A DNA stretch of 48,253 nt from a virus (lineage: Duplodnaviria; Heunggongvirae; Uroviricota; Caudoviricetes), in IMG/VR virus record IMGVR_UViG_2531839665_000024; one strand, given 5' to 3'. The notes beneath the pieces are model-generated. The model did not search any database and was not told the origin of the DNA. It saw only the letters and a program-made list of their open reading frames with translations. Position 1 is the stretch's first letter, and each line of letters begins with the position of its first letter. Both the position numbers and the translations under genes were made by a program. This document shows, piece by piece, positions 18,340 to 19,326 of the stretch.

Positions 18340-18422
18340 CACATCCCCGTCAATACGGCCCTCGCTGTACGCTTACGGTATTTCTGACTCATGGCCGTTT
18401 TTATAATGCGGCCAGGTGTTTT

Positions 18423-18773
18423 TTACAACATTGTCAGGGCGTTAAGGCGGGATGTTTTTGGCTGACGCCAGTCCAGCTTATCGAGGAGCATTGCCAGTTG
18501 CGAGCGGGTAATGGATACCTTACCGTCACGCACCGCAGGCCAGATAAACTGGCCTTCCTCCAGGCGTTTGGTGAACAGGCACAGACCATCAGCATCAGCC
18601 CAAAGAATTTTAACGGTGTCCCCCCGTCGGCCACGGAAGATAAACAGGTGACCGGAGAAGGGATTATCATTCAGCACATGTTGTACCTGTTCTCCCAGTC
18701 CGTTGAAGGATTTACACATATCGGTAACGCCGGCAACGAGCCAGATACGGGTACCTGATGGGAGTGAAATCAT
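18423..18773 (-). CDS. tnpB: IS66-family TnpB homologue (second, diverged copy)
   Basis: 116-aa ORF similar but not identical to 16404-16751 product. Confidence 0.75.
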   Translation of the reverse strand: MISLPSGTRIWLVAGVTDMCKSFNGLGEQVQHVLNDNPFSGHLFIFRGRRGDTVKILWADADGLCLFTKRLEEGQFIWPAVRDGKVSITRSQLAMLLDKLDWRQPKTSRLNALTML

Positions 18774-19195
18774 CTTCCCCTCCCGCTCAGTTCGCGGATT
18801 AACATCGTGAGCAGCTCTGGCGATGGATTTTCCAGCGTCATGTTACCGTGACGGAATTCCACCTTGCAGGAACTGGCACTGACTCTGGTCTGAGTGGAAG
18901 TGGATAAAGACGGCGCAATGGCCGCCACAGGTTCTTTCTGCTCATCCGGCGTTATTTCTACAGGTAATAATTCAACGCCAGTGTCAGAAGAGGTTGTTAC
19001 CGGAAGACGCCGCGAAACATGCCCTTCGTTCTGCCAGAGCCTGAGCCATTTGAAAATAACATTATCATTGACGCCATTTTCTCGTGCAATCTGTGTAACA
19101 CAAGCTCCAGGTTGTGATGCCAGTTCAACCATACGAAGTTTGAATTCATTCGAATACTTTTTACGAGGTTCTTTTCGCCAGTCCTGTAATTCCAT
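18770..19195 (-). CDS. tnpA: IS66-family TnpA homologue (second, diverged copy)
   Basis: 141-aa ORF with ATG start; overlaps downstream tnpB by 4 nt. Confidence 0.7.
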   Translation of the reverse strand: MELQDWRKEPRKKYSNEFKLRMVELASQPGACVTQIARENGVNDNVIFKWLRLWQNEGHVSRRLPVTTSSDTGVELLPVEITPDEQKEPVAAIAPSLSTSTQTRVSASSCKVEFRHGNMTLENPSPELLTMLIRELSGRGR

Positions 19196-19326
19196 ACTTA
19201 GATGTCCGTCTGTGTCAGATGGGCGTCTAAGTTACCAATTCTTGTCTAATGGCTACATACGGCGGTCGGTTTACGCTTACTCTAATTCGTCAGATTCTGA
19301 CCAGACGGTTCAGGCTGTACGCTTAC

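Follow-up and report, generated by a model that had tools for sequence, protein, structure and literature searches.

A hybrid unit bounded by two ISEc8 left ends in the ylcG gene of a DLP12-type prophage, probably formed by nested insertion in the efa1/lifA island and moved as a unit

In compound transposons such as Tn10, Tn5, and Tn9, one transposase acts on two inverted ends that bracket the DNA in between, and the whole unit inserts with the target duplication of the respective insertion sequence (IS). Other known units combine an IS with a solo or surrogate end; examples are the transposition units of ISEcp1 and the short elements that have Tn3-family ends and are mobilized in trans. The hallmark of the IS66 family is an 8-bp target duplication; to our knowledge, little is known experimentally about transposition in this family. 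The literature searched contained no description of the block reported here or of transposition with two left ends in the IS66 family, which is weak evidence of novelty.

The window, which is the complete stretch of 48,253 nucleotides that was analyzed, contains an otherwise full-length prophage from the integrase to the tail fibers (positions 1 to 48253). A block of 3,392 bp at positions 15935 to 19326 is composed of a complete ISEc8, an inverted ISEc23-like piece of 904 bp, and an inverted ISEc8 end of 46 bp (Table 1). Bracketing by inverted ends and a single target duplication are common to the block and to Tn10, Tn5, and Tn9. As in a compound transposon, there is one duplication for the whole unit and an empty site; the block differs in that a 46-bp orphan end takes the place of the second full IS, left ends are present on both outer sides, and the cargo is IS debris without an adaptive gene. 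By analogy, the block may be likened to the ISEcp1-type units, in which an intact element provides the transposase, a separate short end serves as the second end, and adjacent DNA is carried along, but its second end is a perfect copy of its own left end that stems from an older insertion instead of a degenerate look-alike. Because one arm is only 46 bp long and both ends are left ends, the block is not a classical compound transposon, nor is it a new IS as this term is normally understood.

Table 1. Features of the 3,392-bp block and its flanks (positions in the window)
Feature	Position	Strand	Evidence or remark
ylcG fused to the IS end; last three residues (AGV) changed to GKRTA	15805..15951	+	Open reading frame (ORF)
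Target duplication GACAGGAG, left copy	15927..15934		Single copy in the empty site
Complete ISEc8 (IS66 family), 2,442 bp	15935..18376	+	Identity to annotated ISEc8 copies; RefSeq name
ISEc8 left terminal inverted repeat, left end of the block	15935..15956	+	Repeat comparison
ISEc8 tnpA (HTH_Tnp_1); RefSeq start at 16027	16006..16407	+	ORF and domain
ISEc8 tnpB (TnpB_IS66, E = 1e-38)	16404..16751	+	ORF and domain
ISEc8 tnpC, DDE transposase, 512 aa, intact	16801..18339	+	DDE_Tnp_IS66, E = 2e-106, plus zinc-finger, leucine-zipper, and C-terminal domains
ISEc8 right terminal inverted repeat, now internal, probably unused for this move	18355..18376	-	Repeat comparison
GGTATTTC, one copy of the duplication from the entry of ISEc8 into the ISEc23-like element	18377..18384		On both sides of ISEc8 in JB2 and L016
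ISEc23-like element, nt 904 to 1, passenger	18377..19280	-	Sequence identity to ISEc23 and to the efa1-island copy
ISEc23-like tnpB, intact, 116 aa	18423..18773	-	ORF and domain; E2348/69 protein WP_000624681.1
ISEc23-like tnpA, intact, 141 aa	18770..19195	-	ORF and domain
Left terminal repeat of the ISEc23-like element itself	19253..19280	-	Comparison with island loci
Orphan ISEc8 left end, nt 46 to 1, right end of the block	19281..19326	-	Exact mirror of 15935 to 15980
Target duplication GACAGGAG, right copy	19327..19334		Single copy in the empty site
quuD (Q antiterminator), now 3.4 kb further away from rusA and ylcG	19431..19814	+	ORF and gene context

The first element of the block was 99.8 to 99.9% identical over 2,442 to 2,446 bp to ISEc8 copies in Stx phages. 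The matching copy of phage 1717 is annotated as “insertion sequence:ISEC8,” and the RefSeq name of the transposase is “ISEc8 family.” On the basis of these matches, the element is ISEc8. The initial annotation had taken it as a complete element with an imperfect right repeat of its own, and this proved correct: tnpA, tnpB, and tnpC are present in this order and intact, tnpC encodes the IS66 DDE domain in addition to the zf-IS66, LZ, and C-terminal domains, and the two 22-bp terminal repeats are 82% complementary and share the tip GTAAGCG. The target duplication of ISEc8 comprises the 8 bp expected for the IS66 family, as indicated by GGTATTTC on either side of the element in JB2 and at locus L016. 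ISEc8 and the first element of the block are alike in the tnpA-tnpB-tnpC order, the GTAAGCG ends, and the 8-bp duplications, whereas the moved unit is 950 bp longer than ISEc8 and closes with a second left end, with the right end of ISEc8 located internally.

The second part of the block had been described as an inverted and diverged tnpA-tnpB pair without a transposase gene, which agrees with the result of the comparison. TnpA and TnpB of this piece are 35% and 65.5% identical to the respective ISEc8 proteins. The piece was 96.8% identical to nucleotides (nt) 1 to 904 of ISEc23, represented by elements with a transposase of the RefSeq “ISEc23 family,” and 100% identical to the ISEc23-like copy of the efa1 island; over its whole length, the parental copy in the island has about 95% identity to ISEc23. 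ISEc23 and the block have the left end, tnpA, and tnpB in common, but only 904 of the about 2,532 bp of ISEc23 are present and tnpC and the right end are absent, so that the piece is not a complete element. In the block, it is passive cargo and a fragment rather than an IS. A second repeat-like sequence noticed just inside the 46-bp mirror is an ISEc23-type left end, with GTAAGCGTAAACCGACCGCCGTATGTAG as the reverse complement of positions 19253 to 19280. The mirror itself, an exact reverse complement of the first 46 bp of ISEc8, was also found as claimed, and in 3.4 kb, a perfect match of this length is far more than chance would produce.

The bases flanking ISEc8 alone are different, GACAGGAG on the left and GGTATTTC on the right side, and there is no duplication in the window at position 18377. 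In contrast, the outermost tips of the block are both 5'-GTAAGCG and are followed on both sides by GACAGGAG, again in agreement with the initial annotation. For evaluation of the insertion site, the empty site was rebuilt by joining the flanks with a single GACAGGAG and was searched for in 5,426 complete Escherichia coli genomes. It was matched in 4,122 of these, with 1,202 records being at least 99% identical, and it was 100% identical over 492 bp to the uninterrupted rusA-ylcG-quuD region of DLP12-type prophages. Since deletion of the block plus one GACAGGAG restores the uninterrupted rusA-ylcG-quuD region, the 3,392-bp block is the result of a single clean insertion of one unit, accompanied by an 8-bp duplication. 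Only the last three residues of YlcG were changed by the insertion, and the site is located about 100 bp upstream of the gene for the Q antiterminator. A stretch of 3.4 kb with genes in the opposite orientation now lies between the nin/rusA region and quuD (15805 to 15951 and 19431 to 19814). The block could reduce late-gene expression of the prophage.

The window was 100% identical to GCA_000194495.2 over 12.1 kb. A chimeric ORF of YlcG and the IS end was present on eight contigs of other assemblies, and the left junction was 100% identical in the two other assemblies examined. As judged from these matches, the ylcG insertion is inherited in a lineage, and ylcG::block may serve as a marker of this lineage. 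The right outer junction, composed of the stub and GACAGGAG, is known from one assembly only, and a search for the window's right outer junction in IMG/VR yielded no match.

The 46 bp at the right end of the block had been understood as the outer end of the second element. This part of the initial annotation did not hold, since these bases are an orphan stub that remained from another, older copy of ISEc8; the stub is located beside an ISEc23-like element in about 170 genomes. The junction between the ISEc23-like left end and nt 46 to 1 of ISEc8 was searched for with a 196-bp probe and was present in about 172 complete genomes; all 60 matches listed had full coverage and 99.5 to 100% identity. 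The carriers included E2348/69 and strains of the types O55:H7, O103:H2, O121, and O145:H28. The order in this island is ISEc23-like element, 46-bp ISEc8 stub, IS256 fragment, and efa1/lifA, and the tip of the stub continues into GGTTGTCAGG, which belongs to the IS256 fragment. The IS256-family fragment followed the stub in every locus opened, and efa1/lifA came next in most of them. Two loci, L020 and L015, were exceptions. In L020 (GCA_037576615.1, positions 4870 to 4915), insertion of an IS3-family element leaves only nt 18 to 46 of the stub, and the tip that a functional transposon end would require is gone. L015 from an O127:H6 strain was considered as a new stub context and rejected: it is identical to E2348/69 for about 520 bp past the stub, and the loss of efa1 is due to a rearrangement further away.

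In E2348/69 and O55:H7, the ISEc23-like element has its full length of 2,533 bp, is about 95% identical to ISEc23, and contains a single GGTATTTC at nt 897 to 904. There is no duplication around this element, and because of this, the arrangement of stub and ISEc23-like element is interpreted as an old scar. The state without ISEc8, a stub plus an ISEc23-like element with a single GGTATTTC, was found in E2348/69, O55:H7, O103:H2, and FORC064; the element is uninterrupted in the first two and broken elsewhere by other insertion sequences in the last two. In E2348/69 and O55:H7 CB9615, the tnpC of the island element is annotated as frameshifted (positions 2177 to 3762 of loci L005 and L006), which indicates that the island element probably cannot move by itself. 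Both tnpA and tnpB of this element are intact and 100% conserved in E2348/69 and JB2, with the same accessions as in the block.

In JB2, ISEc8 is located between tnpB and tnpC of the ISEc23-like element and is flanked by two copies of GGTATTTC, a textbook case of simple insertion. From the left end of this ISEc8 to the tip of the stub, the segment is 100% identical to the block of the window over all 3,392 bp, and it is flanked in JB2 by the tnpC half of ISEc23 ending in GGTATTTC on the left and by the IS256 fragment plus efa1 on the right. The same precursor layout, ISEc8 flanked by GGTATTTC inside the ISEc23-like element, was found in GCA_910593955.1. The initial annotation had proposed a survey of other genomes for the composite versus the separate elements, and both were recovered: a segment identical to the block in JB2, the same layout in GCA_910593955.1, and stub plus ISEc23-like element without ISEc8 elsewhere. 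Among the 5,426 complete genomes, the internal junction between the right end of ISEc8 and GGTATTTCTGACTCATGG occurred in JB2 only, and there was no match to it in GTDB representative genomes, metagenome contigs, or 72,556 plasmids. The phage collection contained plain ISEc8 insertions or empty rusA-Q sites only and never the block. Several high-coverage matches were rejected as copies of the block: L003 from E. coli 2013C-3277, where ISEc23 and ISEc8 lie side by side; L002, an IS graveyard on a plasmid; and the remaining genome matches, which were ruled out by the internal-junction search because only JB2 has the same structure.

Taken together, the block is interpreted as a hybrid unit bounded by two ISEc8 left ends that was formed by nested insertion in the island and moved as a unit, and the probability of this reading is estimated at about 85%. 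The starting point would be the island with the left end of the ISEc23-like element against the 46-bp ISEc8 stub, followed by the IS256 fragment and efa1, as it is present in the genomes without ISEc8. An active ISEc8 would then have entered the gap between tnpB and tnpC of the ISEc23-like element and duplicated GGTATTTC, a state visible in JB2 and GCA_910593955.1, which would place the new left end of ISEc8 3.3 kb away from the orphan left end and inverted to it. In the last step, of which the product is present in the window, the DDE transposase TnpC of ISEc8 would have acted together with TnpA and TnpB on a pair of two left ends instead of a left and a right end. All DNA between both left ends would have moved into a lambdoid prophage of the DLP12 type and entered ylcG at its 3' end, with duplication of the 8 bp GACAGGAG, and the tnpC half of the ISEc23-like element, being located outside both ends, would have been left behind in the donor.

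This sequence of events accounts for two features of the block. The ISEc23-like piece lacks tnpC because the new ISEc8 entered between tnpB and tnpC, with the tnpC half located outside the two ISEc8 ends, and GGTATTTC at position 18377 is unpaired because the partner copy sits at the donor site. Most likely, the ISEc8 transposase used two left ends, its own and that of the orphan stub. From the junction, which is precise at the tip of the stub, and the 8-bp duplication, we infer that the transposase can recognize and cleave the 46-bp orphan end. All three ISEc8 genes required for such an event are intact within the block. Movement of the 3.4-kb unit as a whole with two identical left-type ends had already been suggested, and the empty site with 100% identity, the identical block in JB2, and a second phage site speak in favor of it. 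The other possibility raised at that time, a fusion of both elements by deletion or recombination prior to insertion, was half right: the elements were joined beforehand, albeit by nested insertions in the efa1/lifA island and not by deletion or recombination.

The second phage site was found in IMG genome 2531839665 by an exact-match scan of IMG/VR. Contig L008 of this genome is 100% identical to the block from nt 93 of ISEc8, where the contig ends, through the ISEc23 piece and the stub, and past the stub it continues directly into the gene for a phage terminase large subunit; in other genomes, this gene is not interrupted at that position. The same stub-terminase junction is present on contig L009 of this genome, located in a related prophage, and the flanks on the two contigs are about 94% identical. 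On both contigs (L008, 3301 to 3707; L009, 332 to 738), the 46-bp end is located at exactly one position of the terminase large-subunit gene and flanked by GATTCTTTAGGCAG. The shared position could be a hot spot or could result from a spread between the prophages by recombination. If the terminase copy had been inserted as a unit, its left junction would be composed of CACCGTATGAGGATTCTTT immediately followed by GTAAGCGTACAGCC. The predicted left junction, GATTCTTT plus the left end of ISEc8, was not found in IMG/VR, and the right junction alone was recovered. Instead of a simple insertion, a rearrangement at the stub tip could account for the terminase event.

The block is complete at the ylcG site, the terminase site is represented by its right junction only, and no further copies were recovered in the scans of 5,426 genomes, 72,556 plasmids, metagenomes, and GTDB representatives. 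The block may nevertheless be seen as a newborn, self-sufficient 3.4-kb derivative of the IS66 family that was repeatedly active as a unit, in ylcG and in the terminase genes of two related prophages; this reading is tentative and rather unlikely. If true, it would mean that the ISEc8 transposase works on two left ends and that 46 bp or less of the left end are sufficient in cis, and the additional diverged tnpA-tnpB pair might alter the activity of the block or its apparent tendency to land in prophages.

As a different route to the same product, a plain ISEc8 could have inserted into ylcG with duplication of GACAGGAG and later gained the ISEc23 piece plus the stub from the island by gene conversion or a double crossover. 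Of the two exchanges, one would have occurred within ISEc8 and the other one in the 13 bp common to the right-end tip and the inverted left-end tip. These tips indeed share the 13 identical terminal bases GCTGTACGCTTAC, the next base is a G in both contexts, and the resulting product would be identical by sequence. However, a tract of 13 to 14 bp for the second exchange is much too short for homologous exchange to be efficient, and neither junction of a simple ISEc8 at this site was found in the 5,426 complete genomes. Moreover, the stub tip adjoins unrelated phage DNA at a second site as well, so that the rare event would have been needed twice. This makes the route improbable.

Even less probable is an assembly artifact, with a plain ISEc8 in ylcG as the true locus and an assembly path that ran through the copy in the island. 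Misjoins are typically caused by IS repeats, and the single assembly that provides the right outer junction would fit such an error, but two chimeric joins would be needed, and for one of them, the shared sequence is only 13 bases long. Three other assemblies confirm the internal junctions, L008 and L009 have an analogous junction between stub and phage DNA, and the structure is located within a contig of 1.27 Mb.

The block could also have been built within the prophage by insertion of ISEc8 into ylcG, of ISEc23 at nt 46 of this ISEc8, and of a second ISEc8 into ISEc23, followed by a deletion. Nested insertions of IS66-family elements into each other were common in the loci examined; nevertheless, this construction must have recreated by chance three junctions and 100% identity over 3,392 bp as in JB2, with a deletion ending exactly at the target duplication. 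The ISEc23-like piece is, moreover, 100% identical to the island variant versus 96.8% to ordinary ISEc23. The identical junctions in JB2 and L016 effectively refute this pathway. Finally, a single chimeric IS66-type element that acquired its ISEc8 end by end exchange, as once suggested by an identical 46-bp end next to diverged accessory proteins, is hardly credible, since the ISEc23-like piece retains its own left terminal repeat (19253 to 19280) directly inside the stub and the combination of both is the old island scar of about 170 genomes, without a duplication around the ISEc23-like element.

Transposition of the hybrid unit on two left ends is a natural example of known transposon behavior and not a new mechanism, and the general understanding of transposons is unchanged. 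For the IS66 family, this natural product suggests that the ISEc8 machinery does not need a pair of a left and a right end and that a terminal stub of 46 bp may be enough as an end. It also suggests that old IS stubs in pathogenicity islands may be reactivated by a nearby live copy, which would mobilize the DNA in between. Movement of DNA from the efa1/lifA island into prophages would provide a possible route for spreading island DNA. The annotation puzzle of an IS66 element seemingly without a transposase in this lineage is explained.

IS66-family elements were repeatedly observed inside other IS66-family elements, often close to the left end or in the spacer between tnpB and tnpC. Examples are L001 (3001 to 5442), L002 (5442 to 5625 and 8223 to 8307), L003 (1345 to 1372 and 3885), and, near the tnpB-tnpC spacer of ISEc23-like elements, L004, L013, L014, and L019. 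The cases comprised an ISEc23-like element at nt 46 of ISEc8, ISEc23 at about nt 76 to 85 of ISEc8, and ISEc8 at nt 897 to 904 of the ISEc23-like element, in addition to an ISCro1-like element 22 bp away with the duplication TTATAAAA and ISEc8 at nt 19/20 of ISEc23. This nesting may reflect a target preference or the mere build-up of IS debris. In L003 of E. coli 2013C-3277 (1345 to 1373), nt 1 to 28 of ISEc23 are located against the right-end tip of an inverted full-length ISEc23, and on the other side, ISEc8 takes the place of nt 1 to 19 of ISEc23. The overlap of 9 bp (nt 20 to 28) looks like an 8-bp target duplication of ISEc8 that was split by a later inversion.
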